Shown here: piece by piece, positions 8,689 through 60,822 of the stretch
Layout of the letters: the number at the start of each line of letters is the position of its first letter
Position numbering within the stretch: the stretch's first letter is position 1
Assembly (NCBI GenBank): GCA_032718475.1
Contig: JAUCBJ010008850.1
Coordinates: 1,492-65,491, forward strand
DNA length: 64,000 nucleotides
Direction: 5' to 3'
DNA from: Nemertoderma westbladi
Taxonomy: Eukaryota > Animalia > Xenacoelomorpha
Program-made: the position numbers and the translations under genes
Notes under the pieces: model-generated
Told to the model about the DNA's origin: nothing
The model's database searches: none
Seen by the model: only the letters and a program-made list of their open reading frames with translations

Positions 8689-8760
8689 GCCCCCGTGGTG
8701 TAGTGGTTAGCATACCTGAACGTTTATCGGGAGACGCGGGTTCGATCCCCGCTGGTGGCG
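8689..8760 (+). pseudogene. tRNA-like sequence (tRNA pseudogene or SINE head), nominal GTT anticodon
   Basis: 72-nt cloverleaf GCCCCCG TG GTGT AGTGGTTA GCAT A CCTGA ACGTTTA TCGGG AGAC GCGGG TTCGATC CCCGC TGGTGGC G. Anticodon loop lacks Y32-U33; one acceptor-stem mismatch. Confidence 0.7.
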
Positions 8761-11772: not shown

Positions 11773-12851
11773 TTATTATTATTTTAGGAAATATTAGCCA
11801 ATGACAACATGAATGGGCAATTCGGAGGGTTTATGGGAAATAGACAAATTAAAAGAGATGTGTGTATCGACAGACGACGTAAAATTATATATAAATGTGG
11901 TTCAAGGCCGAACGTATAAAGCGTAAGTTATATAAGTATAAAAACAGTACATAGTTTACCTGCAAATATCGCCCATGTGAAGAATACCATGTTTTCAGTT
12001 TTCGGTGATATTTTATTTGAATTTATGAAGCATTTTGTATTTTTTTTATTTCTCCCCATTAAGCGACTTATAACGACTATATCTATCTTATAACCTGTAC
12101 ATACAGTATGCTAATTCGTTTATTGTTTTGGTTAGATTCAGCCCTACTGTAACCTGGGTTTTAAGCGAAAACCTGGAACTGTAGGCCAATTCTTCACATG
12201 GGGGTAAACTGCAAAGTGACATATTGCGTGGTAAATACAGTAACATTATTTATCGTACAGTTAACTTAGTCTGTCGAAGACCTTCGCTATTTGGAAGCCA
12301 ACTCCAAACCAACATGGCCTGCGTGACAGTTTGACTTTTTAAGGATAATAAGTATTATAATCACTCAATGACTCTAACAATACATTAGACTTACATTACA
12401 TATGGAACTTAAACAAACGTAAAAATACTGTATATAATGTTTTATATTTTAGGTTCATTGAGGTAATCATGGATCTCGCCTGCTTGAGTAACTCCCACTA
12501 CCAAGAAAATTAGCTTTAATATAAGTTAATTGTTAATTATTAACTCTTTTAGTAAACTGGTTTTTCGCTTTATTATTAAAATATGGTTCCACGTGTAGGT
12601 CTACAATACTGTATTTGAACAACTAGCGTTATATTGTAGCTTTACGTTTCTGTAACAATGTAAGGATAAATAGCATTTTATTATGTTAAGAATATAGGTA
12701 GGCCTATATGACTTAATGTACAGGTATAGAATTATATTCCCTAAATGCCGTGGATTTTCAAAATTTTATTTTATTCGGATTAACTTTTGTAAAGATTGCT
12801 TTGAGTTCTCATTAGTATTGGTTCTATCTATTGTACATCTATCGGTCAAGT

Positions 12852-12938
12852 GGTTCAGTAGCTCAGTTGGTAGAGCGTTGGAAATTATATGTGTAGTAGG
12901 TATCGAGTTCGAATCCTAGTAAGTGCGAATTATTTTTT
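12852..12938 (+). promoter_or_regulatory. tRNA-derived Pol III type-2 promoter in U3 (copy at 27513-27599)
   Basis: A box TAGCTCAGTTGG (12859-12870) with GCTC/GAGC D-stem, B box GAGTTCGAATCC (12905-12916), T6 at 12933-12938. Confidence 0.75.
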
Positions 12939-12995
12939 GTACAGAATTTCAACTCGTTTAAATTAACCGCTACAAATTAATTGCATTTGTCTGTA

Positions 12996-13200
12996 CCAAT
13001 GAGACTGTAGTTATTTGATTGTAACCAATGTCGTGCAAGTTATATATTAGCTGGACCAATAGCTATCTTTAAAACCTTGTTAGAACCCATAGAACAATCG
13101 AGAATTTTCTCGATTGATTGCGGCACAAATTTGCTATAAAAGGGTGCGATTTGTTCATTAGTTATTATTCTATATTACTCTCTCAGTTATTCAGTTATCT
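12996..13200 (+). promoter_or_regulatory. Putative Pol II LTR promoter
   Basis: CCAAT at 12996, 13025, 13056 and CCCAT at 13086 (~30-bp spacing); palindrome 13095-13116 with GAAnnTTC; TATAAAAG at 13135; TCAGTT initiator-like motifs at ~13183-13196. Confidence 0.65.
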
Positions 13201-14645
13201 GATATTTGTTTATTCTGTGATTAGTTTTCAGATTACATCGTATTATAATTATATCTTCTGTAATAAAGTCAGAATATTCTCTCAGCTTTTCTATCTGTTT
13301 TACTATGAATTCACTACGGTGAACAAACTCAGGGACAGGATGGCCGGCTAGAGATCGGGCCGCAGCAATGAACGGGAACATCACGGGAATGTAGACGAGA
13401 GACAACCCGCAATACCATTTAGAGTTATTCGCCCATCGCCTGAAAGGTTAGACAGCGTTCGATCCTTGCTACCTAAGTGTAAGACCAAAAGATCAAAAGG
13501 TAGACGTAGTGACACGCTGTAAGCCCAAAATTACATCATAGGGACTGTACTGTCTTGATTCAGGAAAAACCCACAGTAGACCTTCACATTCCTACGGGGG
13601 GAGAGAGAGCGCAGGCAGATACTAGTACGCAGATAGGACGTAGGCACACCGGTACAAGGCATACACATTGGTTAGGGTGCAGCAAACTGTACGCTTAACT
13701 CTTGCTAAGTACAGGTGTGTGTGCGACTATTTGCAGTACGTCAGTGTCCATTGCATTAGAACTTGTAGGCTAGGGGGGTTGCTGTGTTTTCACCTGAATT
13801 GGGATTGTACCGTTCGGGCGGTAGGGCAGTTTACACTAGGCGCAAATAAATTGAGGCTATCAGGGATATACTAACATCTACCGTGTCCCCGCCAACGCCC
13901 TAATAGGAAGTTACCCGGACTACCTGGGTGACTAAAATTCTAGATAGGAGCCAGGATAGCTATTAGTACCCGTACGCCTACAGTAGTAAACTAACACATC
14001 TCTTCTTAGTATCAGGGACCTGGTACCTAAAATTGCCGAATTCTGGGCGTAGTATTAACCTTATGCCTGAATTTGAGTCCTGGAAATACGCAAGAGGGGA
14101 AGGAACCTTATCATTCGTGAGTATTGGACCTACAAGTTATAAAATTGGAATATTCGTAAATGCACACCGTACCCAGTAATTATATATGTGAAGGAGCAAA
14201 ACTGTTTTGACCGTTCAGAATTATCACACGCGCGTTAGAAATTATTTACACCTCGAAATATATAAAATTAACTTTGTCCGTACTGTGCTTTGCCCGCTAG
14301 TTAGACATCTCCAAATCTCTGCCTGTACCTAGCTAGCGTCTCTTTGCCCAACCATATAAATCACACCGCGGCAAAGTATACGAGCCCCTTAGTCCGTCAG
14401 TGAGTCAGCCTGATTTTAGGATTCGCTGCGCGGGATTTTGTTTTATCGAAGTTTGTCTGCTCGTAGACTGTTTTCTGCCTCACCGGTTATAAGAGATCGA
14501 TACTGCAATATATTCGCTTACTTAGAGTTTACTGTTTTGGTGAGAAGGTCGGATTTATGATTTGATTTACAAACTTTACAGTAGGATATTGCAGGTATTG
14601 TTACCGTCTTTTCGTATAGTAGGAATAGGCGTATCTCTTCCAATA

Positions 14646-14656
14646 GTAGGAATGTG
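14646..14656 (+). promoter_or_regulatory. Primer-binding-site position, self-complementary to LTR 13585-13595
   Basis: GTAGGAATGTG abuts the 5' LTR, lacks TGG, and is the exact reverse complement of CACATTCCTAC. Confidence 0.7.
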
Positions 14657-15454
14657 TTTTACTGAACTACGGTTCGGTAGGACTAAAGTTATTTGAAAAT
14701 TTTGTATTTTGAGGTAAAAATTTATATTTGATTAGCTAAGTGCTAATTTTTTGAAATAAAATTTGATTTGAACCGCGTGTAAAATATTTTGGAATTGAAT
14801 ACCGGTGTTTAAAAGGGTTTAAATACCATATTGTACCGGTACAAAATTTTTCGTAAAGTAAAACCTAACTCTTTTGTTTTTCAGGATTCAGAACTCATTT
14901 CTAGACTGTAACGGGAGCAAGACCGTGTTTAGCAAGTTTGGGAGATAGATAACTCAACAACTTTGGTTGGGAAAATCGCGTTTCGTCCGCAACGTTAAAA
15001 ACGGAAGGGTTCACGTCCGGTTTGTATCTGGGAATCTGTTTTTCTGGAGAATTATTGGAGTGGGTGAGTTCGAAAAGTTGCATAAATAAGTTAGGCATTA
15101 CCGTATTAGTTAAAAATTATTGTGGGTTCCACTGTCTCAAGTATTTATGCATTCCGTACGATTTCTTTGTTCATTGCTGAATTAGTCCGTATTATTGTAT
15201 TTAATTTATCTTTTGATAACGCATATCGTTATCCGATTTATTTGTTATAAAATTGGGCGCTAGGCTAATTTTATTATATACTCATTCCGTGACATTTATT
15301 TGCTGTAAAATTGGCCGTTTAGGCTAATTTTATCCATCTGCTATAAAATCGGCCGGTAGGCTAATTTTATAAGACTGTAATTAGTACCGTTTAGATATAA
15401 ATACGGTAAACTCGATACTTTGACACTCACTTTACTTGACTTACAACTACCGAA

Positions 15455-18400
15455 ATGAGTGACAAACAAGACTATACGAAGAATACACAAACCGACTATG
15501 ACTCATGCGACGGAGATAAGTCAGCAGCGGAAGAACAACAGGGGAAGACTCGCGAGCCTACCGAACCTACACCGTGTGCGTCACCAGTACATCCAACGGG
15601 AGTACCGGATGCCGTAGTACGAGGTGACGGCAGGACCGAGGACTTTCTAACTGTTCCGCAACCTAGATACAGGGAAACGGAAATGGTAAGTTCAGCAGGA
15701 AGCACAGAAAGTGTGGTTAGAAGCGTCGGAGGTTACATGGTGCATATTACCAGGAGTATTGGAGAAGGCCAACGCATATTAGACGGGTTGACCGCTCCGA
15801 TGTCTCGATTCGAGTTCTACACCCTCCAGGTTAGAGTACAGAGTAAAGTATATAAGTCCGTAGATAATCTAGTTGGCCTACAAGATCTAGCTAGACAGAG
15901 ACAGGACATGGATACTCAACTTAGAATCCTCGAGAAACTAATGATCGCTAGAGAGAAACTGATTCAGTTTAAGTCGACGATTAGACAGATACAACAGGAA
16001 CAAGCGGACCAGTTGTTAGGTGAGTCAGTTTCGGACGAATTATTACAACCCGAGGAAGAACAGGAACTGTACCGACTGGATGGACAATTAAAACACCTGA
16101 CGGACCACTTACGCATGTGCGGCGAAGACGTCGGCGATTTGGAAACCGTGCCGGAATATACGAGGGAAACTTCATTCGCACAAATCGAATCGGCACCGGG
16201 AATACTAAATCAATCGCTGGTAAGTATTCGTAGCGAAATCTGCGAGGGAAGTATGGTCACGTCAGAAGTTGCTCGACAACAGCAACAGTTCTACAGACAG
16301 CAACACGATATGGAAGAACAAGCTCAACTTCTAATGATACAAACAGCGGTAGAGGAAGAGAAAATACGTGTCGCGAATGTAGCGAGAATCTCTCATCTGC
16401 AGGAACAAGCCGAACTCGAAGCGGCCGAAATGGAAAGGTTAGAGTTGGACATTGCCCAACAAGCGGCAGCGGCCAAGTTAGCGCAACGAACGGCAACGGC
16501 CGAGTTAGAGCGACAAACGGCGGCAGCCGAGTTAGAGCGACAAACGGCGGCAGCCGAGTTAGAGCGACAAACGGCGGCAGCCGAGTTAGAGCGACAAACG
16601 GAAGTGGCGGAGTTAGAAAGAAAGCGACTAGTTTCAGAAGCCAGAGTCGAGATGAAGACACGGCAAATAAAAGCCCAACAAGCGATACGACAAGCAGAGT
16701 TCGAGGCGCAACAACAACAAACGGAACAACGAGAAAAGGAAGTTAAACTCCGTTTCGAACTTGAGAAAAGGGCGAGAGAATTAGCCGAAACCAAGGAAAA
16801 TCTGGATCTTCTAGCTCGTGATCGATCGATGAGATCTCGTGACGGACATGATCTAGACCAGTTAGAGGTAAGGCACCGCCAAATCCAGGAACGAATGAAG
16901 GAAGGTTCGGTAGGGGCACCTGGACGAGAAAGACAATTAGTTAAGGACTTATGTCAAAGATTCCCTCAGGTAACTCCTATGTTTGCACCTGTTACGACTA
17001 AGGAACCTGTTTCGATTGCTGGTAGCAGTGATATCTCTCCTATCCATGGTGTGACGGAACACAGGTTTGTTATTCCGGACAAGTTTATACCTTCAAGAGC
17101 AACGTCGTCGCCTATTTTGAGGGTCAAGGTAAGTAACCCACCGATTACAGATCGTAGTAGTTTATTGACCGGACCTGCACTACTGACGACAAAACAGGTG
17201 AGTCCACCTTTGACACCTAAACCCGTTACGCACTACGAATACCCAATGACGTTTCGACCTACAAGGCCAGTTGATTCAAATGCTGTCATTCGTCCACCGG
17301 TTCAGTTTGCATCGCAATCTACGACTTCAAGGAAGACTTGTGAGCCTACCGAACAACGGAGACCAGTGGATACGCGACCGCTCAACCAGTTCACATCGCA
17401 ATCTACGACTTCGAGGAAGACTTGTGAGCCTACCGAACAACGGAGACCAGTGGATACGCGACCGCTCAACCAGTTCACATCGCAATCTACGACTTCGAGG
17501 AAGACTTGTGAGCCTACCGAACAACGGAGATCAGTGGACGATGTTCCGAAACGAAATGTTAAAATTCGTACGACGCAACGGACGCGAGCACGTCGACCAC
17601 CATATCCGGATGATAGTAGTACTTCGAGCGAATCGGATTACCCGAAACGCGAGGTATTTAGAACAGGGGCGGCCGATGAATATAAACGCGAGCGTTCAGA
17701 CAACTCCTTTGCAGACAATCCTCCACAGAATACACCAACACCGAAGGCGTTACAACCAACGGACGCAATTAGTACACAACAGTTCGCCGACATTCTGCGA
17801 CCAGTTGTCAATAAGTTGGCTCAGATCGAGGAACGTCTGGAGGAAGGTTACACCGACAGTTCGAGAAATTCCGAATTCGAACACAATAGACACCCGAAGG
17901 CACCACAAAGACCGGTACCTTCAAACCCCACATCGTATCAGGGAAAAGCGCCAAGAAGGGAGAACATCAACCAGACTACCAACCAAGGACGCGAAACTCT
18001 GAACGTTGCCGAGGAGATAGCGAAATTCGCAGCCAGACAGGGATTGCCGGTACAACAACCACCGAAGTTTTCCGGTAGCTCAAAACACTGGCATACCTTC
18101 GTAGACTATATCGAATCCCAGATCGCCGTGTGCGCCTTTACATCACGGGAGAAGTTCAATTACCTGCTCCAAACGTTGTCAGGAGAACCTAAACGTTTGG
18201 CGGAGACTTTCGTCGGTGTACCGGACGCTTTCGAACTAGCGTACGATCGTTTAACTTCGATATACGGAGGTACAGTGAGTATGGCCAGGTCAGTAATAGA
18301 GGAACTCTGTAAGGGAGGGGCTATCACTAAACCCGTCGACTTACTAAAACTAGCTGACGAGATCAAGAACGCTATCACTACCTTAAGATCAATTGGACAA

Positions 18401-21400
18401 CTTGATTACGGGAATACCCCTACAGTTCTATTAAAGATAATAGGACGACTCCACCATCGACTTCGTCGGGAGTGGAGGAAGGTCGAATACCAGCGAGAGG
18501 AGCGAGGAGGATTCCTAAAATTAGAAGATGTGTACCTTTTAATATCCAGGGAGGCGGTAGTAGAAACTCGATCTAACTATACCGACCAGCACATCGTGGC
18601 AGAAGGGATCACACTGCCATCCTCCAACCGACAAAAACCCCAGACAACATCCACAAAGACGGCCACTTACGCCACACCGACGGAATCACGACAATTCTCA
18701 GACGGTAATAGAGTATCTGCGCCCATTGGGACAAAACAGACGAGACAGCAACTCAGCACCGACTTCAACGGCTGCCAATACTGCGAGCATCTAGGTAAGC
18801 GGTATATTGGTCACAAGTTACGAGGTTGTCGACAATTTCGCGAGTTGAACTCGGAAGAACGACGGCTGCAGATACGGCCACTGGACTCTTGTTGGCGGTG
18901 TACGCGACACGGACACGTGCGTAAGGATTGCCCAAATACTGACACTTGTCCATCCTGTGGACGCAACCACGACGGTCTGCTCCACACAGACAGCCACACG
19001 CCGACGAAACGCTTCGCCAGGGAACACCCGGAAGCAGCAGCGAGATGTGATGCGGCCTACCGAAAACGAGAATCGAAAACGACTCCAACCTTTGTGACCC
19101 ATATTGAGGATTGCTTCTCAGAACAATCCGGATCGTCGGACGAAGAATCAGAAGACGACGATGAATATTCCAATGGAGACGAACAACCGTCGATCGCGCT
19201 CCTGACTACTGATCAACTGAAGGGATTCAGTGTAATCCCGATTAAGGTTACTGGCACAAAGGGAAGTAAGAGGATCTATGCGATTCTAGATTCAGCCTCA
19301 TCCCATAGCTACGTGGACGAAAAGATAGCTGACGTCGTAACGGATCTCAGACAAGGTAAACACGTCAGTTATACAGTAAGTAGTATGCACGGCCAGCGTG
19401 CAATACCAGTGACACGAGTTAAGTTGGACTTAGACTCTCTTCTTCCAAAATCGCAACACAGCGAGAGGGAGAGGTCTTTGTTACCCTTTAGAGATCTAAC
19501 CTTTGCGGCCACGAAGGACTTTAGTAACCTACTAGGTCCAGTGCCGGAACAATCTCTGGAGGACCGTAAGTATTTCAGACACCTTGGTGTACCCGAATGT
19601 CCTGTCAATTATAGATCGGTAGCAATGCTGATCGGGACGGACCAATTCAACCTACATCAGGTGTGGGAAACCAGACCATCGGCAGTTGTAGCGGGAAACG
19701 CATACGCCTGCAGAACGCCGATAGGGTGGTATACTCGAGCGCCTGTGCGCACACTAGACGTAAGTGACGAGGAAGACGATGTACAGAGTACATGTAGTTT
19801 ATTAACTACAAATTCTATTCATTCCTTTTCACACGACGTGAACCATACTACGCTACAGTCGACAAAACATGACAGACGGGTAACTAGTATGATAAGTCAC
19901 AAGGAGCAGCTAATCCACAAGGTGAGTTTGGAACTTGGGGAGAAGATGAGTCAGCTAGAGATTCCATCGACGACAGATGATAGGCTTGCGAGTCTACCTA
20001 CCCCAATAACCTCAACAGTGCCCGTCGATATCGATGATGACGCGTTGAAAATTCATCAGTTGGAACAAGCGGACCTGGACAAAGAATTAACGGAGAAGAC
20101 TATCAGGTGGTTTGAACAAGATACAGCTGAACCTGGTAGCTACGAACCTTGTATGTCGGAACAGGAGAAACAATCTCTAAAGATCATGGAAGATACTATC
20201 CGACAGACGGAGGACGGACATTACGAGGTGGGGATGTTATGGCGTAGCCAAAGTCCAAAACTTATAAATAACTACCCACTGGCTTTGAGACGTCTACACT
20301 CAATACGACAACGTCTATTAAAGGACGAGAAAGCCCATCTGCAGTACAACACTCAGATGGAGACGTATTTGACTGAAGGATACGCTATCCGAATGACTAA
20401 CCCGGAGCGAGTGACCGACCAGACGTACTACTTGCCACATCACTACGTGAGACACCCCGATAAACCAGACAAAGTACGTGTAGTCAATGACTGTGCGGCT
20501 CTGTTTGAGGGAATGTCCCTCAATAGTGAGTTGATGGATGGACCGAACATGAATAATTATCTAATGGGGGTGATTATGCGCTTCCGTCAGCGTCAAGTAG
20601 CCTTTACTTGCGACGTTGAAGCGATGTTTCACCAAGTAAAGGCTTTAGAGCGAGACAAAGACAGTTTGCGGTTCCTCTGGTATCCGGAAGGAGACTTAAG
20701 TCTACCACCAGCGACTTACCAAATGCAAGTTCGCGTTTTCGGTGCCAGAGACAGCCCAAATTGTACGATGTACGCCTTGAAGCAAGCCGCTAGAGATCAG
20801 AAACATCTGTATGACCCAGAGATAATTAGAATTGTGGAGCGTGACTTTTATGTAGATGACGGTTTACAAAGTTGCGACACAGTAGAACGTGCTACAACAG
20901 TAGCACATCAATTACGGGACTGCTTGGCGGGCGGAGGTTTTAACCTCACCAAATTCGCCTCAAACAGTGCCGAATTAGTTGACTCATTCGGAACTACTGA
21001 GCGTGGAGGTGGTGACATAGACCTAGAGTTCGAACCACTACCGACGACTAAGGTGTTGGGGCTCTTTTGGGACCCAAACACAGACAACTTTCGAGTGAAG
21101 GTGAGACTGGACAGTCAAGGAAACACACTGACCAAGAGATCATGCTTGTCAAAGTTGAGCCGATTGTTCGATCCGTTAGGATTCATCAGTCCAGTGATAC
21201 TGCAAGCCCGCATTTACATGCGCAGTATATGGAAGGATGGACTAACGTGGGACGAGCCGATCTCATCAGACCAAGTGGACTTATGGAAGACCTGGGAGGC
21301 GGAATTATCTTCGCTAGAGGATTATTTCATACCCAGGGTTTACTTTCCATTACAAAGTACATTTCCTGACAACTTGGAACTACACTGTTTTTCTGACGCC

Positions 21401-24253
21401 AGTGACAACGGTTTTGGTGTGGCAGCGTACTTGCGCAGACAAGTAGAATCAGACGAGTTCGATGTTTCGCTCATTACTTCCAAGGCTAAGACCATGCCTA
21501 CTAAGTATATGACGACACCACGAGCCGAGCTACAAGCCGCGACCCTGTCAACCACCATCGTGAACCTCATACAGACAGAACTACAGTCGAGTTTACAGAT
21601 ATTTTATTGGACTGAGGCGACGTTGGTTTTATTTTACATAAACAACGACACACTCGAATTCAAGACATTCGTAGCTAACCGTCGCGCAGAGATTCTAGAC
21701 CGTTCGATAAAAGAGGATTGGCGACATTGTCCAGGACCACAAAACCCAGCTGATATTGCGTCGCGAGGAATGATGCCTGAGGAATTCTGTAAACCGGAGA
21801 ACAAAGGGTTTTGGCAACACGGACCCCAGTTCTTGCAGAAATCGACACAAGATTGGCCTCCGTTATACGACAACAAGTCCAACACCATTCCAAAGGACGC
21901 CGAAATCAAGAAACCAAAAAAGGGGAAGACAAAGAAAAGGACAACGGCGGCAAAACTCAAGAAAAAACCGAAGGCAAAATGGAAGGATATAACTTCAAAG
22001 GTCAAGAGAGGAAGACTTGCGAGCCTTTCTACACCAGACATATCGCCAGACGGTCAACCAGACATGTTACTAGACAGCCAACCAGACATTTTGCCAGACA
22101 TATCACAAAATGTTCCACCAGACGCTAGTAACACACTGACAAACAGTAAAGCCGCAGTTTCCCTATTGGAGCGGCCTTCTATTGACAAACAACCAGATAC
22201 GTTACCAGACGTATCGCCAGACACATTACTAGACAGTCGACTAGACATTTTGTCAGAAACATCACAAAATGTTCTACCGGACATTAGTAATGTATCGACT
22301 AACAATAAAGCCGCAGTTTCCCTATTGGAGCGGCCTTGTATTGACAAACTACCAATTTTGACACACTTGAGCAACCATAAGCACGGTGAAACCTCATGTA
22401 TTACAGATGTGGGTAGTACCTACGCTAATGTAAATACAGGTGTTACTTTGCGCTCAAGAGACATACCGAACTTGCAACCTACGGTGAGACCTGGGATTAA
22501 TGTCGGCAGGAAAATAAGTTTACCGAAACCTGCTGACCCCATAGAGTTCAAACCACCATTAACGATCGACTTACAAAGTACCGACAATCAAGGTAAGAAG
22601 ACAAAGAAGGACAAATTACTTGTAGACCCCGACGGATCAACAGTCAACAAGGGAATACTTACCGGCGGACCCGTGGGCCCTTCTAGTAATTTAAAACCTT
22701 CCAAAATCTCCATTGACTTACCTGATGACGTCACAAATACTCATGTCGACCGTATTGTAAACTTAACAGATTCTTGGTCAAACGCTTGCCGAAAATTAGC
22801 GTGGATTGTACGTTTTGTACAATACGTTAAAGGCAAACGTGACTTTACACGTCGACTTACATTGGCTGAGATTGACAGGTGTGAGATTAAATTAATTCGC
22901 CATTATCAAATGCGATATTTCGCGCGCGAATTCACATCTATAAATCAAGGTCAACCAATCAAGTCGTCACCGATACTGAGTTGGAGTCCGATAATTTATA
23001 ATGGCTTAATTTGTCATAAATCTCGGCTTCAAAACATTGACTTTAATACGAATTTTAGATACCCAATAATAATACCGCAACACCACGAACTACAACGTGC
23101 AATGATACTGGACGCACATTTACATCTGAAACACGCTGGAAGACACCACTGTCTTTCCTACTTACGTACTAGATTTGTATTAATTAGACCCAGTAAAGCG
23201 TTAAGTTCAGTGACACGTACGTGTATTATTTGTAAAAAGGTACATTCTAGAATAGGTACCCAAGAAATGAGTGAACTACCACAAGCACGACTTCAAGCAT
23301 TCAAACCACCTTTTACAGAGACTGGAATTGATTGCTTTGGTCCCATACATACGAAACGTGGACGTATACTAGTAAAACGCTGGGGACTGATTTTCACATG
23401 TATGTCCAGTAGGGCAGTTCATATTGAACGTGTGATGGATCTTTCCACTAACGCGTTTATACTAGCACTGCGGCGATTTATCGCTAGACGCGGACTAGTG
23501 AAATGCTTGTACTCAGACCAAGGGACAAACTTTGTTGGTGCTCGGAATGAGATTGCTAGAGCCTTTAAGAAATTAGATCATGATCAAATCTCAAACGAAC
23601 TGCAACCTCACAAGATTGTTTGGAAGTTCAATCCTCCAGATAGTCCTTGGAGAGGCGGAGTCTGGGAGAGACTGATTAGATCTATAAAGACAGCAATGGC
23701 AAAGGTCATTCCAGTAAACCACATATTAACAGACGACCAACTGACAACATTGTTTGTTGAAATCGAGGCAATACTAAATACTAGACCAATAGTATTAGTA
23801 CCCGATGACAAACAATCTCAGTTTGCTTTGACACCGGCACACCTGCTAATGCAGGCACCGACGACTTTGACACCGATTTCTATTCCAATAGAAAGCGACA
23901 GCTACGGTAGAAAAGCGTGGAAAATCACGCAACTACTGGCTAACAAATTCTGGGAAATATGGCAAAACCATTATTTGCCCTCTATTTCTGCCAGAACAAC
24001 ATGGTACAATAACACCCGCGCATTAAAGCCGGGAGATCACGTGCTGTTGGCAGAAGTGAATCTAAAAAGACGCTTCTGGATAACAGGTGTAATTTTAGCC
24101 ACACATCCATCTATGGATGGAGTGACAAGAACTGTGACGGTACGAACAATTGACGGTCGTACAGTAGACAGACCGACTCAACGTCTCGTACTTCTTGAAG
24201 AAACTCGTAACGAGTCTGGAGACTACAAATCTCCACCTAATACTAGTAAATAA
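15455..24253 (+). CDS. BEL/Pao gag-pol polyprotein (2932 aa)
   Basis: Coiled-coil N-terminus; DUF1759-like PPKFSG..EKFNYL; Cys/His fingers (CWRCTRHGHVRKDC, CPSCGRNH..LLH); protease LDSAS; RT YYLPHH/FYVDD; RNase H FSDAS..PRAEL..NPAD; integrase HHCC, IDCFGP, SDQGTNF, GGVWERL. Confidence 0.97.
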   Translation: MSDKQDYTKNTQTDYDSCDGDKSAAEEQQGKTREPTEPTPCASPVHPTGVPDAVVRGDGRTEDFLTVPQPRYRETEMVSSAGSTESVVRSVGGYMVHITRSIGEGQRILDGLTAPMSRFEFYTLQVRVQSKVYKSVDNLVGLQDLARQRQDMDTQLRILEKLMIAREKLIQFKSTIRQIQQEQADQLLGESVSDELLQPEEEQELYRLDGQLKHLTDHLRMCGEDVGDLETVPEYTRETSFAQIESAPGILNQSLVSIRSEICEGSMVTSEVARQQQQFYRQQHDMEEQAQLLMIQTAVEEEKIRVANVARISHLQEQAELEAAEMERLELDIAQQAAAAKLAQRTATAELERQTAAAELERQTAAAELERQTAAAELERQTEVAELERKRLVSEARVEMKTRQIKAQQAIRQAEFEAQQQQTEQREKEVKLRFELEKRARELAETKENLDLLARDRSMRSRDGHDLDQLEVRHRQIQERMKEGSVGAPGRERQLVKDLCQRFPQVTPMFAPVTTKEPVSIAGSSDISPIHGVTEHRFVIPDKFIPSRATSSPILRVKVSNPPITDRSSLLTGPALLTTKQVSPPLTPKPVTHYEYPMTFRPTRPVDSNAVIRPPVQFASQSTTSRKTCEPTEQRRPVDTRPLNQFTSQSTTSRKTCEPTEQRRPVDTRPLNQFTSQSTTSRKTCEPTEQRRSVDDVPKRNVKIRTTQRTRARRPPYPDDSSTSSESDYPKREVFRTGAADEYKRERSDNSFADNPPQNTPTPKALQPTDAISTQQFADILRPVVNKLAQIEERLEEGYTDSSRNSEFEHNRHPKAPQRPVPSNPTSYQGKAPRRENINQTTNQGRETLNVAEEIAKFAARQGLPVQQPPKFSGSSKHWHTFVDYIESQIAVCAFTSREKFNYLLQTLSGEPKRLAETFVGVPDAFELAYDRLTSIYGGTVSMARSVIEELCKGGAITKPVDLLKLADEIKNAITTLRSIGQLDYGNTPTVLLKIIGRLHHRLRREWRKVEYQREERGGFLKLEDVYLLISREAVVETRSNYTDQHIVAEGITLPSSNRQKPQTTSTKTATYATPTESRQFSDGNRVSAPIGTKQTRQQLSTDFNGCQYCEHLGKRYIGHKLRGCRQFRELNSEERRLQIRPLDSCWRCTRHGHVRKDCPNTDTCPSCGRNHDGLLHTDSHTPTKRFAREHPEAAARCDAAYRKRESKTTPTFVTHIEDCFSEQSGSSDEESEDDDEYSNGDEQPSIALLTTDQLKGFSVIPIKVTGTKGSKRIYAILDSASSHSYVDEKIADVVTDLRQGKHVSYTVSSMHGQRAIPVTRVKLDLDSLLPKSQHSERERSLLPFRDLTFAATKDFSNLLGPVPEQSLEDRKYFRHLGVPECPVNYRSVAMLIGTDQFNLHQVWETRPSAVVAGNAYACRTPIGWYTRAPVRTLDVSDEEDDVQSTCSLLTTNSIHSFSHDVNHTTLQSTKHDRRVTSMISHKEQLIHKVSLELGEKMSQLEIPSTTDDRLASLPTPITSTVPVDIDDDALKIHQLEQADLDKELTEKTIRWFEQDTAEPGSYEPCMSEQEKQSLKIMEDTIRQTEDGHYEVGMLWRSQSPKLINNYPLALRRLHSIRQRLLKDEKAHLQYNTQMETYLTEGYAIRMTNPERVTDQTYYLPHHYVRHPDKPDKVRVVNDCAALFEGMSLNSELMDGPNMNNYLMGVIMRFRQRQVAFTCDVEAMFHQVKALERDKDSLRFLWYPEGDLSLPPATYQMQVRVFGARDSPNCTMYALKQAARDQKHLYDPEIIRIVERDFYVDDGLQSCDTVERATTVAHQLRDCLAGGGFNLTKFASNSAELVDSFGTTERGGGDIDLEFEPLPTTKVLGLFWDPNTDNFRVKVRLDSQGNTLTKRSCLSKLSRLFDPLGFISPVILQARIYMRSIWKDGLTWDEPISSDQVDLWKTWEAELSSLEDYFIPRVYFPLQSTFPDNLELHCFSDASDNGFGVAAYLRRQVESDEFDVSLITSKAKTMPTKYMTTPRAELQAATLSTTIVNLIQTELQSSLQIFYWTEATLVLFYINNDTLEFKTFVANRRAEILDRSIKEDWRHCPGPQNPADIASRGMMPEEFCKPENKGFWQHGPQFLQKSTQDWPPLYDNKSNTIPKDAEIKKPKKGKTKKRTTAAKLKKKPKAKWKDITSKVKRGRLASLSTPDISPDGQPDMLLDSQPDILPDISQNVPPDASNTLTNSKAAVSLLERPSIDKQPDTLPDVSPDTLLDSRLDILSETSQNVLPDISNVSTNNKAAVSLLERPCIDKLPILTHLSNHKHGETSCITDVGSTYANVNTGVTLRSRDIPNLQPTVRPGINVGRKISLPKPADPIEFKPPLTIDLQSTDNQGKKTKKDKLLVDPDGSTVNKGILTGGPVGPSSNLKPSKISIDLPDDVTNTHVDRIVNLTDSWSNACRKLAWIVRFVQYVKGKRDFTRRLTLAEIDRCEIKLIRHYQMRYFAREFTSINQGQPIKSSPILSWSPIIYNGLICHKSRLQNIDFNTNFRYPIIIPQHHELQRAMILDAHLHLKHAGRHHCLSYLRTRFVLIRPSKALSSVTRTCIICKKVHSRIGTQEMSELPQARLQAFKPPFTETGIDCFGPIHTKRGRILVKRWGLIFTCMSSRAVHIERVMDLSTNAFILALRRFIARRGLVKCLYSDQGTNFVGARNEIARAFKKLDHDQISNELQPHKIVWKFNPPDSPWRGGVWERLIRSIKTAMAKVIPVNHILTDDQLTTLFVEIEAILNTRPIVLVPDDKQSQFALTPAHLLMQAPTTLTPISIPIESDSYGRKAWKITQLLANKFWEIWQNHYLPSISARTTWYNNTRALKPGDHVLLAEVNLKRRFWITGVILATHPSMDGVTRTVTVRTIDGRTVDRPTQRLVLLEETRNESGDYKSPPNTSK
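17303..17540 (+). repeat. 84-bp (28-aa) in-frame tandem repeat x~3 in gag; a 27-bp AAAELERQT repeat lies at ~16490-16620
   Basis: GGAAGAC recurs at 17331, 17415 and 17499. Confidence 0.9.
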
Positions 24254-24914
24254 TTAGGAGTTTGTTTACAAATAGATTTCCACGTACCTGTACACCGTAG
24301 TAAGGACAGCGGTAGAATTCCATTGTCTTTATATGTGAACATTGAGGGTAGTACCCTTATGTGTCACATAGGAGCGGGATTTGTAGGTATAAGAAATGGA
24401 ATTCTACTTGGAACTCACAATATTGAGACATTTTCGAAATTTTAGACAATCCATTTGGATTTGAAAAATTTTAAAATTTTCTCCAGTGAATAGATTTCAG
24501 GGTACAGTCGGGTGGAACTTAAAATTAGAGAAACAAGAGAGGAAGACTTGCGAGCCTTTCTTAAAATTTTAATTAAATTTTACACGGTCTTGTTTCAATA
24601 AGTTACGTCAAATAGACTCCCCTATATTTATTACTAATTCTTGATTGCTTATTTTCTGATAATAGTTTGGGATCAAAAGGTGAGTATTTTAGACTCACGG
24701 CCAGTTTAGCCCAAATTCGTTTTTACTTCGGCAAAAATTTTAGATAAGAAGCAGCGTGTCATTAAAGAAACCTTAGATCTTAGGCTATGGGTAGGAGGTT
24801 AGAGCGTTGTCGAAGCCCAAAAGGCAGACGAAACTCTCACGTCTCCTCACAACTAACCACAAACTCTGTTGTATTCCCTCTAGTAGTAATGATTATGTAA
24901 CTACACCTCTAATT

Positions 24915-25250
24915 ATGGAGAAAGGGATACAAGGAGAGCCGAGATGGGGATATGATATCCAAGAGGAGGCAGCAGCGCCATTCAAAAGATTTGGAGCCAA
25001 GGACTACACTATATTTGGTATAAAGGAATTATCAGAAAGTACAGCGAAGCTCGCAAAGACAGCAATGCCTTTACTCGAGCAGGATTTAGCATATTTCGAG
25101 ACGTGTATCTTCGCTGTGCGGGATCTCTTATCGAAAGACCATCTATGTTTACATTGTTACCCTATGAAGGAGAACGTATCGTGGAGATTACGGATGAATC
25201 ACGGCAGACGCGCGCGCCTATCGGTCACCTTGGTGATGAATTCGAAGTAA
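24915..25250 (+). CDS. Accessory ORF2a of BEL element (probable N-terminal, zero-frame part of ORF2)
   Basis: attATGG start in good context after a splice acceptor at 24883; overlaps the -1 frame ORF by ~295 nt. Confidence 0.55.
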   Translation: MEKGIQGEPRWGYDIQEEAAAPFKRFGAKDYTIFGIKELSESTAKLAKTAMPLLEQDLAYFETCIFAVRDLLSKDHLCLHCYPMKENVSWRLRMNHGRRARLSVTLVMNSK

Positions 25251-26617
25251 CTACTACGATCACCGACGATCCTTTAGAGGAACTTCTTGAGATAGAAAGG
25301 AACCTCCCGAAGAAATCTCAGACGGAGATTCGACAACTTGAAGCAACGGATGCTATAGTTTGTATACAACCTTCAGAAACCTACCAACCCATAGACCCAG
25401 ATGATTACGATTATAGTATGGGAGGAAGCGCTCGACCGATTGGAGATCTTATATACGAACGAGTGTGGTACCCTGCCAATACGATGTGTAGTAAATGTGG
25501 CGTCGCTGGACATCATATGGCAAAGTGCAGTGGAAAGCACATTACTACGACTCAGCTAATCTGTGGATGGTGTGGGGATCAAGGGTCTCATACCTTTTAT
25601 ACTTGCTGGAGATTTATGGCTCAATGTACTTACTGCAATATAAAGGGACATCGAGCATCTGAATGCCAACTGAGAGACATACCTTATGAACACGAATCTG
25701 TTAAACTCGTGAGGAAATTATTTGATGAGTGGGAAGATTTGGCCGACGAACATGTATCGGCACAGAGAAGACGGTTTCCGATGAGAGCGCATCTCGGATT
25801 TTGGGCGGTAAATCCCCAGACGATGATGTCGGAAGGATATATCTCCGCTATGCCCCAATATGACGAACTTATCGAGGTTGTCGATATTTTACCCCACGAC
25901 AGCGGATTCCGAGTGGTGCGCGAGTATCTGTTACAAATTCACCCGGATAACAAAAACACGTGGAATTTTCAGAAAGTCGTTAATCGGATTACGTATGGTG
26001 AATTCGATCGTTTCCGAACTGAAAAGCGGAACAAGGGAGCTTGGTTAACCGTCGCATGGGCGTACCGAGCCGCGTTTTACCACAAACGTATACGAGCGAG
26101 CGTATTCGAGGAAGAAGAGGTCCTAGAGGCGACGAATATACCAGCCACTCCGGTTGCGCCGTCTGCACGTCACCCTCGGGAGGACGGACAGGGTAGGATC
26201 ATACGGGTCCAGAAGGTGGGCCAACATTTGAAGAAAATTATTAATGTAGAAGAACGCAAGGGAGTTGAGCCGACCATTCGAGTTACTCGGGATACGGTAT
26301 CACTTCCAAGAGAACCAGTAGGAGGATCGGGACATACACCAGCTGATCAACAGGGGGCGCAAGCTACTCTTGGGTCTGCGTCGTCCGCTTCTCACGCGTT
26401 CCCAGACGTTCTACCAACTGTAGTGACAACTGATCGGTCACGAGGAATCGGTCGAGGTTTTGGGATGCCAAATAGACGAATTTGCGAGGAAATAGTCGCA
26501 CCGTCTCTCAACGTCCCAAGTAAACCAGTGACTCGCCCCACAAGTCCCATATCGCGAGCAAAGTCACCTGTGCGCAGTTTTCGAGGACGCGGCAGGGCTC
26601 GATCTACTAAGCGATAA
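24956..26617 (+). CDS. Accessory ORF2b: triple zinc-knuckle protein with basic RS/RG-rich tail
   Basis: Frame open 24956-26617 (track ORF 25103-26617); CSKCGVAGHHMAKC, CGWCGDQGSHTFYTC, CTYCNIKGHRASEC; tail SPISRAKSPVRSFRGRGRARSTKR; no signal peptide or TM segment seen, so not env. Confidence 0.85.
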   Translation, partial: YPRGGSSAIQKIWSQGLHYIWYKGIIRKYSEARKDSNAFTRAGFSIFRDVYLRCAGSLIERPSMFTLLPYEGERIVEITDESRQTRAPIGHLGDEFEVTTTITDDPLEELLEIERNLPKKSQTEIRQLEATDAIVCIQPSETYQPIDPDDYDYSMGGSARPIGDLIYERVWYPANTMCSKCGVAGHHMAKCSGKHITTTQLICGWCGDQGSHTFYTCWRFMAQCTYCNIKGHRASECQLRDIPYEHESVKLVRKLFDEWEDLADEHVSAQRRRFPMRAHLGFWAVNPQTMMSEGYISAMPQYDELIEVVDILPHDSGFRVVREYLLQIHPDNKNTWNFQKVVNRITYGEFDRFRTEKRNKGAWLTVAWAYRAAFYHKRIRASVFEEEEVLEATNIPATPVAPSARHPREDGQGRIIRVQKVGQHLKKIINVEERKGVEPTIRVTRDTVSLPREPVGGSGHTPADQQGAQATLGSASSASHAFPDVLPTVVTTDRSRGIGRGFGMPNRRICEEIVAPSLNVPSKPVTRPTSPISRAKSPVRSFRGRGRARSTKR

Positions 26618-27385
26618 AAGGGAGGGCAAGGGTGGACGGAAGACTCGTGGGCCTTTCTTATGATTTGTGATTTATTTTGAATTATATGTTTTATATTTAG
26701 AAAATTTAGTAAAACTTATATTTTATATTTGTGCTTATTCCGAACTTATGCAATTTGTATTGTTCCGAATTTATGAAATTTAGAAATAAGAATTTATATT
26801 TTGTAAAACTTATATTTAGTAAAACTTATATTTTATATTTGTGATTATTCCGAACTTATGCAATTTATATTGTTCCGAATATTATGCAATTTATATTTTA
26901 TAAGCAGTATTTGTATTTACAGTGAAATAGAAAGTTTTATAGATAGAAAAATTTGTGCTCAGAAAGACTCATATTTGTAATTATTCCAAACTTATGCAAT
27001 CTACATTTAGGTACGAAAGTATTTGTAATTACTTGAATTTATGCAAATATTTGAGATGCAATAGTAGATGGAAGACTCGCGAGCCTTTCTTATTGTTTTA
27101 ATTTGTTTGTGTTTGTAATTGTTTAAATTTATGCAATATTGAGATGCAATAGATTTATATTGGTGAATTTAATTTAGATTTATATTGTACTTACTTAGTA
27201 AAGCCTTAAATACGTAAAGTTTGAATTTGTAATTATTTTTGTATCGAATCATTACGTAGAAAGGAAGTATTGTATGAAATTTAATTGTAAATATGTAAGT
27301 ACGCCCTAAGTATTCTATAGTTTAATTGATTATTGGTGAAAACCGTATATTTTATGCACGATAATATCCTGTTTTCATGGAGCGG

Positions 27386-29306
27386 TATAGAATTATATTC
27401 CCTAAATGCCGTGGATTTTCAAAATTTTATTTTATTCGGATTAACTTTTGTAAAGATTGCTTTGAGTTCTCATTAGTATTGGTTCTATCTATTGTACATC
27501 TATCGGTCAAGTGGTTCAGTAGCTCAGTTGGTAGAGCGTTGGAAATTATATGTGTAGTAGGTATCGAGTTCGAATCCTAGTAAGTGCGAATTATTTTTTG
27601 TACAGAATTTCAACTCGTTTAAATTAACCGCTACAAATTAATTGCATTTGTCTGTACCAATGAGACTGTAGTTATTTGATTGTAACCAATGTCGTGCAAG
27701 TTATATATTAGCTGGACCAATAGCTATCTTTAAAACCTTGTTAGAACCCATAGAACAATCGAGAATTTTCTCGATTGATTGCGGCACAAATTTGCTATAA
27801 AAGGGTGCGATTTGTTCATTAGTTATTATTCTATATTACTCTCTCAGTTATTCAGTTATCTGATATTTGTTTATTCTGTGATTAGTTTTCAGATTACATC
27901 GTATTATAATTATATCTTCTGTAATAAAGTCAGAATATTCTCTCAGCTTTTCTATCTGTTTTACTATGAATTCACTACGGTGAACAAACTCAGGGACAGG
28001 ATGGCCGGCTAGAGATCGGGCCGCAGCAATGAACGGGAACATCACGGGAATGTAGACGAGAGACAACCCGCAATACCATTTAGAGTTATTCGCCCATCGC
28101 CTGAAAGGTTAGACAGCGTTCGATCCTTGCTACCTAAGTGTAAGACCAAAAGATCAAAAGGTAGACGTAGTGACACGCTGTAAGCCCAAAATTACATCAT
28201 AGGGACTGTACTGTCTTGATTCAGGAAAAACCCACAGTAGACCTTCACATTCCTACGGGGGGAGAGAGAGCGCAGGCAGATACTAGTACGCAGATAGGAC
28301 GTAGGCACACCGGTACAAGGCATACACATTGGTTAGGGTGCAGCAAACTGTACGCTTAACTCTTGCTAAGTACAGGTGTGTGTGCGACTATTTGCAGTAC
28401 GTCAGTGTCCATTGCATTAGAACTTGTAGGCTAGGGGGGTTGCTGTGTTTTCACCTGAATTGGGATTGTACCGTTCGGGCGGTAGGGCAGTTTACACTAG
28501 GCGCAAATAAATTGAGGCTATCAGGGATATACTAACATCTACCGTGTCCCCGCCAACGCCCTAATAGGAAGTTACCCGGACTACCTGGGTGACTAAAATT
28601 CTAGATAGGAGCCAGGATAGCTATTAGTACCCGTACGCCTACAGTAGTAAACTAACACATCTCTTCTTAGTATCAGGGACCTGGTACCTAAAATTGCCGA
28701 ATTCTGGGCGTAGTATTAACCTTATGCCTGAATTTGAGTCCTGGAAATACGCAAGAGGGGAAGGAACCTTATCATTCGTGAGTATTGGACCTACAAGTTA
28801 TAAAATTGGAATATTCGTAAATGCACACCGTACCCAGTAATTATATATGTGAAGGAGCAAAACTGTTTTGACCGTTCAGAATTAACACACGCGCGTTAGA
28901 AATTATTTACACCTCGAAATATATAAAATTAACTTTGTCCGTACTGTGCTTTGCCCGCTAGTTAGACATCTCCAAATCTCTGCCTGTACCTAGCTAGCGT
29001 CTCTTTGCCCAACCATATAAATCACACCGCGGCAAAGTATACGAGCCCCTTAGTCCGTCAGTGAGTCAGCCTGATTTTAGGATTCGCTGCGCGGGATTTT
29101 GTTTTATCGAAGTTTGTCTGCTCGTAGACTGTTTTCTGCCTCACCGGTTATAAGAGATCGATACTGCAATATATTCGCTTACTTAGAGTTTACTGTTTTG
29201 GTGAGAAGGTCGGATTTATGATTTGATTTACAAACTTTACAGTAGGATATTGCAGGTATTGTTACCGTCTTTTCGTATAGTAGGAATAGGCGTATCTCTT
29301 CCAATA
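27386..29306 (+). repeat. 3' LTR of BEL element
   Basis: Direct repeat of 12725-14645, followed by TSD ACAGG. Confidence 0.97.
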
Positions 29307-29847
29307 ACAGGTGTTGTACTTTATTTAAGTTGGTGTAATATCATTACACGATTATTTTCTCCTGAATATCAGTTAACAATTTTTACCAAAAACAACCCGG
29401 TGATGACTAGCTTGACATGTGCACATATCGCCCCGACTCTAGAACTCTAGCTTCCTACTGTATGTTTAACGCAGACTCCGGATAAGGAATGTTGATTACA
29501 AAGTTATCAGGCCTGTCATTAATTATTTAGGAGGTCATCTCATAAGCCTGAATATCTTATAAACAAAAAAAAATATAATAATCTCAAATTGCCGCAATGT
29601 GAAGGTAATCCAATATTTTCACGATTTTCCAAATTGGTTCAACGCATTACAGAACGCTGTTTCCAAAATTACTGATTACAGGTACTTTTTAAATTAGTTT
29701 TACTATTATAAAGATTACTTTAATGGGGAGTTGGTGCACAAAGGTAAATTACGATAAACAAAGTATCTTACAGTATAAAACCTCCTTCGGTTTCTAATGA
29801 ATACAGAAACTTCCTCTGTTGAGACGAGTTATAAAGTCAACACATTA

Positions 29848-32800
29848 TTATTCTTTGTCCCTGGCGTGATTTCTCTTAGCTTTAGCCAATATACTGGGAC
29901 ATTCTTCCATGCAGGCCAATGTGAGATAGTCAATATAGGATTCCAAGTCCTTTTTAACATTGCTTAGTTCTACAATCTGCGAAAAATAAATGCTATTTAA
30001 TAAAAAATATGTTATCAATTAATAGAAAAAAGCTGTTTTTTTTTTCACTACTGTACATAATTTTATTTGACCGAAAATATAAAAAGATGAAAAAAAGAAT
30101 ATAAAAATATTTTATTCTGTCTGCTTTAATTAACTTTTTTAATTAAGTACAACTTGTTTTACATCAATGCTCTTTCTATTCATATAATACTATCTGAGAA
30201 ATTCGACCAAAAATATTCAGTTTTTATTTTTATAAAATAATTTTCACTACAATTATGCATTTGTTCTCATAAGCAATTATTCCTCATGACGTTATAAATT
30301 AAGAATCAAACTACAGGTTAGGCCTACATACTGTACTGTATATTCGTTGCCAAGTAGGCCTACAGTACTACACTGACCTCAGAGCGCAGTTTTATAATTT
30401 CATTTACAAGAATATCTTTCTTTAACTTCTTTAAGGACGTCGGATCTTTAGCTGATTTCTCGGTGTTTGTCGGAGATGATTTAGGTGTCGGAATTTCTAC
30501 AACTATACTGGGTACCGGTAACTTCCTTCTAGAAGCTCTCAGTGAAATATTGGACAGAGTCCTAATAATAGCGGTAGACTTATAACGATGTTTCGTGTCT
30601 CTTTTAATCTCTGAACCCCCATTGGTGGAGGTAGACTCCCTAATGTACGGTGATACTACAGCTAAGTTATCTGTAGACTGGGATTGAAGTTTCTCTGAGA
30701 TGAAATTCCCCTTTTGTTTCGACTCGTTTAACAGTTTTTGAATTGTCTTAACATCGGCGCGTTTGTTCGGTTTTTCCACCGTATCAACTCTGTCGTCTGC
30801 AGCGAGCTCATCTACTGATTCCCATATCGGGGTTCGACTCTCCGTTTCGAAATCCAGTCGATTCGATGAAATATCGTTTAACGATAACGACATCCGTCGC
30901 ATCTGGCCAAGTGGACGACCTCCAATCTGTTATTACAAATAATAATTTTATTGGTAATATTAAACCAGAAATTTTCATCCAAAGTAATTTTTATTCCAGT
31001 GTCATGTTATCGGCGTTTTATATTTAATTTACACCCACTGCAAAATTGGCTATGTAAATCCATCTGAGTCAGTCGGTTTACATACTGTATTATTATTTTA
31101 CATGAATGGTTTATTACTTTACAAATTCTTTCCAATCAAACACAATCATTTATAAATAAGTATAATTAGGGCTTTTGCACACTTATAATATTAATTTAAC
31201 CGGTGTTCTGATGGCTGCTGGCTGACTTTCCGCCGTACGAATTGTTTCCAATTTGGCACCATTTTGGGACGATGACTTTTCCGTTGTAGTCTCATTTCTT
31301 CCAGTACGTTTATTTTTCAATGTCGCTTTTGTAACATATGCCTCGTAGGTCAATGAACCTTTGCGTAAATAAAGAAATATTAGCAATATAGACGACATAC
31401 TATAGAACGTAGATTTATTGTATGTTACCCGAGTGATTGTGTCACGTTTTACGTTCATGTATGTTTTAAAGGATAGTTTTCTAAATATATAAATAAAATT
31501 ATTATCAAATGACTTTGATCACAGATGATATAATTGAGGTTTTGTTCTTACCTAATTGTCCAGATTCGGATTTTTTGGTTTTTTTCGGATTTTCTATATT
31601 AACCGTCGTCGCATGCATACATATTCCCGGTATGGTTGTTATGGGAACGCTAACTTGCCCAATCAATGAGGCTTTGTCTTTCACAGTCATGAGGACTTCT
31701 CGACACAATTTGTCTATTTTACTAAAACATTTTGCAAAAATACTAAATATTGATGTACAACATTGTGAAATGACTAAACCAACACCGACTTACAGTATAA
31801 TACAATATACATACTGTACAGTTTCTCATACAATAAATAGGAACCGGAGTTAACATAAAGAATGGCAGTACTGTACTACAGATTCCTTGACCCCAATGCG
31901 ATCTGGTCCTGTCCATTTCATCCTTGCCATGTTAACTGACCGGGACCTCTGGTCATGTCCATCGTCTACAGAAGGTCAACTGTCTACGTCCATCGTCTAG
32001 GTCCACTGTCTACGTCCATCGTCTAGGTACACTGTCTATGTCCATCGTCTATGTCCACTGTCTACGTCCATCGTCTATGTCCACTGTCTATGTCCATCGT
32101 CTATGTCCACTGTCTATGTCCATCGTCTATGTCCACTGTCTACGTCCATCGTCTAGGACCACTGTCTACTTCTATCGTCTATGTCCACCCTCCATGTCCA
32201 TCGTCTAGGTCCTCTCTCTATGTCCATCGTCTATGTCCACTGTCTACTTCCATCGTCTATGTCCACCCTCTATGTCCATCGTCTAGGTCCTCTCTCTATG
32301 TCCATCGTCTATGTCCACTGTCTACGTCCATCGTCTATGTCCACCCTCTATGTCCATCGTCTGGGTCCACTCTCTATATGTCCATCGTCTAAGTCCACTG
32401 TCTACGTCCATCGTCTATGTCCACCCTCTATGTCCATCGTCTGGGTCCACTCTCTATGTCCATCGTCTAGGTCCACTGTCTACGTCCATCGTCTATGTCC
32501 ACCCTCTATGTCCATCGTCTAGGTCCACTCTCTATGTCCATCGTCTAGGTGCACTGTCTACGTCCATCGTCTATGTCCACCCTCTATGTCCATCGTCTAG
32601 GTCCACTCTCTATGTCCATCGTCTAGGTCCACTGTCTACGTCCATCGTCTATGTCCACCCTCTATGTCCATCGTCTAGGTCCACTGTCTACGTCCATCGT
32701 CTATGTCCACCCTCTATGTCCATCGTCTAGGTCCACTCTCTATGTCCATCGTCTAGGTCCACTGTCTACGTCCATCGTCTATGTCCACCCTCTATGTCCA

Positions 32801-60751: not shown

Positions 60752-60822
60752 GTCTTAACTCACAAGAGTCTTAACCTCTAAGACCTGCCGAACTGTGACT
60801 GCTAGCCACCGACAGAGTAAAG

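Follow-up and report, generated by a model that had tools for sequence, protein, structure and literature searches.

A 64,000-nt stretch of the Nemertoderma westbladi genome was analyzed (hereafter the window, on whose coordinates all positions are given), and an intact 16.6 kb BEL/Pao retrotransposon with long terminal repeats (LTRs) was found in it, along which a 20-nt motif recurs in 11 copies over 11.5 kb. Two-sided changes in the diverged copies, together with the YGYG centre on the + strand, favor a paired RNA signal as judged from the sequence, and some role of the motif at the RNA level is probable. The specific account that we prefer is more tentative: the copies may be dispersed RNA tags that are read by ORF2, a protein encoded by a second open reading frame (ORF) downstream of gag-pol, for the export or the protection of intron-containing element RNA.

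Copies of the motif

A preliminary description of the window had proposed eight copies, and the degenerate pattern given there matched exactly eight times, always on the + strand and at the positions it had reported (Table 1), while the rest of the window, the LTRs included, had no match. Its further observations on these copies were also borne out: the motif is read in codon phase 1 in gag (KTREPT, KTCEPT) and in phase 0 in the linker between RNase H (RH) and integrase (IN) (RLASLS), three copies are non-coding, the stretch 22003-22030 has the same 28 nt as 24534-24561, and the three copies at 17.3-17.5 kb have one tandem origin, as all of them sit in an 84-nt tandem repeat. The list was incomplete, however, since it lacked three diverged copies, which start at 19979, 22664, and 25203, along with a doubtful fourth at 23138.

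The motif family ranked first in a motif-blind search of the internal region for families of 20-mers with members more than 300 nt apart, with eight dispersed members against three to four in 12 of 12 block-wise dinucleotide shuffles. The three additional copies were identified by a sequence-only matrix built on six canonical sites; among 4000 simulated 12.7-kb strands, 229 contained a match of at least 11 bits and 11 a match of at least 19 bits. The copy at 23138 is weak (model E-value 0.79), and the arms-only pattern that found it was set after the fact. Gaps between the copies range from 0.4 to 2.5 kb, and eight of the 11 copies are coding. The five independent sites in gag-pol lie in parts with a mean identity of 0.00-0.08 to 120 relatives, and parts as poorly alike as these make up about 40% of Gag-Pol. 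The motif was not found in viral contigs, which contained no BEL relatives either, and no Rfam family scored above threshold, with one match at chance level (RydC, E-value 0.1).

Homology between the flanks of dispersed sites stops 0-7 nt from the motif, while the flanks are shared within subtypes. The latter, together with the 28-nt identity of a coding and a non-coding copy, indicates recent copying, as would occur if the motif were a replication by-product, namely a palindrome at which reverse transcriptase (RT) pauses, which multiplies through short switches of template, and which remains wherever the encoded protein can accommodate it. The youth of the family, whose members are mostly 90-100% alike, and the lack of any sign of reduced variation at the motif agree with this explanation. 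It nevertheless appeared improbable, given that the diverged copies keep both the pairing and the A.C or G-U position, that homology between dispersed sites ends so close to the motif, and that copies persist in two codon phases as well as in non-coding DNA.

Pairing and the central tetranucleotide

The hairpin drawn in the preliminary description gained support for its pairing scheme from compensatory changes in the diverged copies, but the fold is weak (see below). The copies at 19979, 22664, and 25203 all keep pairs 4-17, 5-16, 7-14, and 8-13, as did 32 of 235 simulated matches. Two two-sided pair changes, as in 22664, were seen in none of the 235, and one such change, as in 25203, was seen in 15. 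Across the eight distinct rows, 81% of the cells pair, and the covariation score of 0.268 was reached by 11 of 500 shuffles and exceeded that of all six slid registers.

All 11 copies have a centre that reads YGYG on the + strand, and on the - strand only the three CGCG copies fit. Some five independent changes in the centre all run from C to T on the + strand, with no G-to-A change among them, an outcome with a chance of approximately 0.03-0.06 by our own estimate if changes were symmetric; A/G differences are as common as C/T differences among copies of the family. Position 6-15 is A.C in ten copies and G-U in one (19979), two pairs that are similar in shape. The G-U pair that the core variation was said to give lies in the copy at 26638 and depends on the G at 26650, a minority allele: A made up 77, 83, and 95% of the summed contig depth in runs X1, X2, and X3, and 47% in X4.

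The copy at 19979 represents the inverted form of the motif, with two mismatches on the - strand, and on the + strand its G-U stands for A.C. Occurrence on both strands had been named as grounds for a DNA site rather than an RNA signal, and here one copy is indeed inverted, although it can also be read as a + strand hairpin with a YGYG centre. Because inversion turns A.C into G-U, its stem does not decide between an RNA and a DNA reading; only its centre discriminates, and the centre obeys the + strand rule.

Three other explanations of the copies or their pairing were rejected. An alternative register (G1-C16, G2-C15, with a 12-nt loop) was predicted only at 22010 and 24541 and is not general. 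Pairing of the motif with the LTR, the leader, or the tRNA of the window gave -14 to -19 kcal/mol at no shared site and without a control. A common RLASLxTP peptide may explain 19979 and 22010 at the level of the protein but fails for 24541, the non-coding twin of the latter.

Self-complementarity and two rival explanations

Since the motif is near its own reverse complement across all 20 nt, its copies are able to pair with each other. Predicted copy-to-copy duplexes, both self and cross, ranged from -8 to -30 kcal/mol and were far stabler than the hairpins, and each of the other copies formed its most stable duplex with 19979 (-20 to -30 kcal/mol). A role in packaging or dimer linkage, in which the Gag fingers would bind the loops or the 20-mers would pair within or between RNAs and compact the 15-kb genome, ranks close behind the tag account, and is by itself rather unlikely. 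Dispersed packaging signals have reportedly been described for single-stranded RNA (ssRNA) viruses and hepatitis B virus (HBV), where the coat protein is the reader and only a short loop motif is held in common. These resemble the present case in consisting of many short, degenerate stem-loops in coding and non-coding parts, in contrast to which the canonical eight copies here agree at 16-20 of 20 nt. Many related stem-loops do lie along this genome, spaced as noted above, though their stems are weak, and G-U pairing keeps all centre variants pairable on the + strand. The element is also large for BEL/Pao, whose usual size is 4.2-10 kb (PMC3118150; works cited by PMC number are quoted from the excerpts available). 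The A.C mismatch, in contrast, would weaken a duplex and is kept in ten of the 11 copies, some or all copies are retained by spliced RNAs, no such family occurs in distant BEL/Pao loci, and neither the LTR nor the leader, the site of retroviral packaging signals (PMC7599994), contains a copy.

The two-fold symmetry, with two 7-nt arms around a 6-nt spacer, also fits a dimeric protein on DNA. In this unlikely alternative, the motif would be a double-stranded site through which ORF2, ORF X (see below), or a factor of the host maintains the activity of the element, similar to the anti-silencing sites of VANC in the VANDAL transposons of Arabidopsis. The arms-only pattern had 12 sites, all within the element and none outside it or in 541 kb of relatives; one copy is inverted, another has a free spacer, and copies have been gained by tandem duplication in gag and, in other family members, in the 3' region. 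Joints and loose ends of those members indicate an extra copy after 26935 and the loss of two 84-nt units. VANDAL elements likewise combine an accessory gene with a motif that is specific to the lineage, has multiplied through tandem duplication, and often keeps a single orientation (PMC5735166). They are DNA transposons, however, and their motifs are 8-9 bp long, non-palindromic, recognized in duplex DNA, and mainly non-coding (PMC5735166), whereas most copies here are coding and show pairing changes. Against a DNA site stand the two-sided complementary changes, which a protein on duplex DNA does not require, and the exclusive C-to-T direction of the centre changes; CCHC knuckles bind single strands, the LTR promoter has no copy, and the element shows no CpG loss (observed/expected ratio 0.8-1.5). 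The consensus sites of the host transcription factors p53, BANP, Smad, and CSL did not fit the motif by eye.

Splicing and the accessory reading frames

In run X4, 13446 is connected with 14885 in one contig and 15063 with 24884 in another, and both joints are of the GT..AG type with good donor and acceptor contexts, indicating two likely introns. Each joint was represented by one X4 contig with 26-29 letters on its short side, and neither was seen in runs X1, X3, and X5. We infer from the joints that X4, catalogued with the guess 'DNA?', is RNA. The first intron would remove most of the 3' part of the LTR and the primer-site position, and the second gag-pol along with eight of the 11 motif copies, leaving three in ORF2 mRNA. 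The second joint would likely yield an mRNA with ORF X first, followed by the overlapping ORF2.

ORF X is the first long ORF past the intron 2 acceptor. It carries a Cys/His cluster, and a Pfam scan of it gave no match. ORF2 consists of three CCHC-type knuckles (amino acids (aa) 115-174), an unassigned middle part, and an R/G-rich tail. None of 7994 candidates of 269-858 aa was a relative at an E-value of 0.001, a search against 1.84 billion representatives gave two matches with likeness in the knuckles only, matches in the Atlas were all under 0.9 with none for aa 175-335, and metagenome contigs contained no relative. A single-sequence fold of aa 101-332 was unusable (pLDDT, predicted local distance difference test, 37.5).

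The top solved-structure match of the knuckles was the nucleocapsid of Rous sarcoma virus (RSV; E-value 0.005), whose first knuckle binds the UGCG tetraloop of SL-C (PDB 2IHX; PMC5035970). Both systems have CCHC knuckles as well as a loop of the UGCG type, and retroviral knuckles in general bind exposed loop guanosines (PMC7599994). In RSV, however, there is one site in the 5' packaging signal and Gag is its reader (PMC5035970), and the likeness of ORF2 is weak.

As a mechanism, the weak stem with its A.C (or G-U) pair and YGYG loop would be bound and stabilized by the three zinc knuckles of ORF2; a real hairpin would depend on a protein to keep its stem closed. Binding to the tags would then license intron-containing element RNA for nuclear export or shield it from decay. 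ORF2 would be translated from the spliced mRNA that retains three tags, while gag-pol and genomic RNA would retain all 11, and the number of tags would set avidity.

Several observations weigh against this account. Folded alone, the eight canonical hairpins reach -0.4 to -2.0 kcal/mol, predictions in context gave the stem at no copies other than 27070 and, when flanks of 100 nt were included, 24541, no 40-nt context was clearly below shuffles (best z -1.7), and RNAalifold predicted no structure for the motif copies. The count of pairs with two-sided changes was not unusual (90 of 500 shuffles). The copy at 19979 is more simply an inverted copy, that at 23138, if real, has no loop G, and three copies remain in the ORF2 mRNA. 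Regarding the reader, Gag has three zinc fingers of its own, the RSV match reflects a generic CCHC likeness, and altering UGCG did not reduce the specificity of RSV Gag (PMC5035970). The co-occurrence of motif and ORF2 is confined to one lineage. Finally, variation within the family gives no hint that the motif is protected, with two of 12 listed substitutions inside the 40 motif nt of 531, a test that is uninformative because the family is too young. The distributed cis-acting RNA signal of the preliminary description draws support from the compensatory changes and the uniform YGYG centre, and is opposed by the marginal hairpin and the one inverted copy.

Near the motif copy at 22010, two further features were observed. 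An A-rich, Lys-coding stretch at 21900-22000 directly precedes the copy, and the summed contig depth of X4 drops about tenfold after this bin, perhaps through internal oligo-dT priming, with contig depth being a poor measure.

Comparison with relatives

A search of related elements and a check on the co-occurrence of motif and ORF2 had been suggested, and were carried out on distant BEL/Pao loci with 35-43% identity, of which 545 were confirmed and the best 80 used; these 80 are shorter than this element and partly redundant. The motif was not found in the 80 loci (best matrix score 14.1 bits; three model matches at E-values of 4-7), nor did any of them encode ORF2 or ORF X. Motif and ORF2 were thus absent there and occur jointly in a single lineage, an outcome that agrees with a pair and is no test of one. 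Among the 64 loci of at least 5 kb, the largest dispersed family had two members in 54, three in nine, and four in one, compared with seven in this element at the same setting, and several of the relatives' families were due to LTRs or duplicated ends. In 22 of the 24 loci with a repeat after the integrase, the repeat begins within 925 nt, leaving no room for an ORF2-like gene. Long ORFs after the integrase in loci L019 and L042 were found to be their own Gag in permuted contigs rather than ORF2.

A close relative of Pol was not found either, with best identities of 43% among full-length matches and at most 48% on partial matches; peptides encoded by the motif are therefore no proxy for it. 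The literature, in which the family name is poorly searchable and supplements were outside the scope, yielded neither a spliced accessory gene of the zinc-knuckle type nor a dispersed motif for any BEL/Pao element.

Element architecture and other features of the window

The element belongs to BEL/Pao. It has two LTRs flanked by a 5-bp target-site duplication and a single Gag-Pol ORF with a BEL Gag (DUF1759), a Pao RT/RH (Peptidase_A17), and the integrase last; DUF5641 was also detected by Pfam, and Integrase_H2C2 was under the cut-off. Its RT/RH groups with BEL/Pao proteins, at 36-43% identity among the 120 listed matches. A quick tree of 33 rows placed it on a long branch among elements of aquatic invertebrates (cnidarians, mollusks, and echinoderms), a placement that is not firm since no starred group includes the element. 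The Gag-Pol frame spans 2937 codons from stop to stop, compared with a median of 1922 aa in the 120 relatives. The insertion is recent and intact, as the LTRs differ by one base and the 5-bp duplication is present on either side. Organism A contains many copies of this young family, and most matched contigs are 90-100% alike. Contigs of low depth in runs X1 and X3, with about 80% likeness at 17984-18300, 23516-24006, and 25402-25689, represent a sister subfamily that has diverged and in which the ORF2 region is also present.

LTR ends are usually TG..CA, whereas those of this element are TA..TA (12725-12729, 14641-14645) and hence atypical, and the purine tract upstream of the 3' LTR is weak (27373-27385). 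LTRs of BEL/Pao elements usually measure 0.2-1.2 kb (PMC3118150). No primer site of the TGG type for a tRNA was seen at 14646-14656, the 11 nt just 3' of the 5' LTR. This stretch is exactly complementary to an LTR 11-mer at 13585-13595 (28246-28256), behind which a G run lies; only three of 794 leader 11-mers have such an LTR match. Self-priming is possible by analogy with Tf1/Sushi, Tcn1, and TAR, the excerpt available on these cases naming none from BEL/Pao (PMC6317226). The LTR further contains a tRNA-like stretch with A- and B-box-like motifs at 12850-12930 (27511-27591), called by ARAGORN only at a lowered threshold, and a TATA box and two AATAAA signals (13135, 13262, 13845), one before and one after the candidate self-primer, a layout that suggests two start or end sites.

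Elsewhere in the window, long tandem arrays were found at 31973-36704, with a unit of 13/26 nt (182 units of 26), and at 38444-42905, where a 63-nt unit occurs 71 times and the array is open on the - strand for 771 codons. A 1255-codon ORF of low complexity, rich in P, Q, and N, occupies 46928-50695 (-) and has no Pfam match. Other features included a PHD-finger ORF fragment at 52798-53463 (+), a tRNA-Asn gene at 8689-8760 (+), and purine-rich ORFs at the window end (60799-63654), with no Pfam match where scanned.

Table 1. Coordinates of the element, its reading frames, likely introns, and motif copies in the window
Feature	Position	Strand	Remarks
5' LTR	12725..14645	+	1921 bp, ends TA..TA, one mismatch to 3' LTR
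3' LTR	27386..29306	+	1921 bp, one mismatch to 5' LTR
Target-site duplication, 5 bp	12720-12724 and 29307-29311		directly outside the LTRs
Likely intron 1	13447..14884	+	GT..AG
Likely intron 2	15064..24883	+	GT..AG
Gag-Pol, single ORF	15455..24253	+	2932 aa from first ATG, BEL/Pao type, three Gag zinc fingers
ORF X	24915..25250	+	111 aa, overlaps ORF2 in another frame
ORF2	25145..26617	+	490 aa from first ATG
Motif copy	15543..15562	+	centre CGCG, Gag N-terminal part (aa 35)
Three motif copies (17331, 17415, 17499)	17331..17518	+	centre TGTG, 84-nt tandem repeat in gag
Diverged motif copy	19979..19998		centre TGCG, protease-RT linker, inverted form
Motif copy	22010..22029	+	centre TGCG, RH-IN linker
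Diverged motif copy	22664..22683	+	centre CGTG, two-sided changes at pairs 4-17 and 8-13
Doubtful motif copy	23138..23157	+	arms kept, centre CCAC, in integrase zinc-binding domain
Motif copy	24541..24560	+	centre TGCG, non-coding, between pol and ORF2
Diverged motif copy	25203..25222	+	centre CGCG, two-sided change at pair 8-13, ORF X/ORF2 overlap
Motif copy	26638..26657	+	centre CGTG, 3' non-coding, G at 26650 a minority allele
Motif copy	27070..27089	+	centre CGCG, 3' non-coding

Known systems and significance

A pair similar to Rev and the Rev response element (RRE) had been proposed in the preliminary description. The splice joints that would make an ORF2 mRNA agree with that proposal, whereas the three of 11 copies that stay in this mRNA do not. 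The element resembles human immunodeficiency virus (HIV; Rev/RRE) and human T-lymphotropic virus (HTLV; Rex and its response element, RxRE) in that its accessory ORFs overlap in different frames on what would be a spliced mRNA, and in having an R-rich tail and a putative cis-acting RNA signal. RRE and RxRE, however, are single large stable structures, whereas the copies found here are small and weak, number 11 across 11.5 kb, and come with a zinc-knuckle protein. In HIV, the response element is confined to intron-containing RNA, while elements of the Rex/Rec type are present in all RNAs. The motif falls outside the RRE kind, as it is neither one large structure nor confined to an intron; by analogy, it may nonetheless work like an RRE.

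The closest precedent for ORF2-read tags is CERV, the product of a spliced mRNA of Cer1, an LTR retrotransposon of C. elegans, whose unspliced RNA cannot be exported without it (PMC10309623). Like CERV, ORF2 would be an accessory protein of an LTR retrotransposon with a Cys-rich part and a putative spliced mRNA. CERV has exons in common with Gag, its finger is proposed to be of the C4 type, and no response element is named in the excerpt available (PMC10309623). ORF2, in contrast, lies 3' of pol in a BEL/Pao element, has three CCHC knuckles, and is accompanied by a candidate cis motif. No sequence kinship between ORF2 and CERV was seen, although no search was aimed at CERV.

Extended further, though with less likelihood than the tag account itself, the element could be a 'complex' BEL/Pao retrotransposon that arrived, independently of Rev, Rex, and CERV, at a zinc-knuckle accessory protein and a response element split into a dozen hairpins. 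These would sit in protein linkers and untranslated regions, and the tags left after splicing would distinguish genomic, gag-pol, and accessory RNAs.

Few LTR retrotransposons have a shown route by which their unspliced RNA passes nuclear retention and enters packaging. Here the question becomes testable, since a candidate protein is available together with a 20-nt target of sharp definition. If the tag account is true, a response element broken into many tags within coding linkers would be a design unlike the RRE, and a spliced accessory mRNA with two ORFs would move BEL/Pao towards the organization of complex retroviruses.

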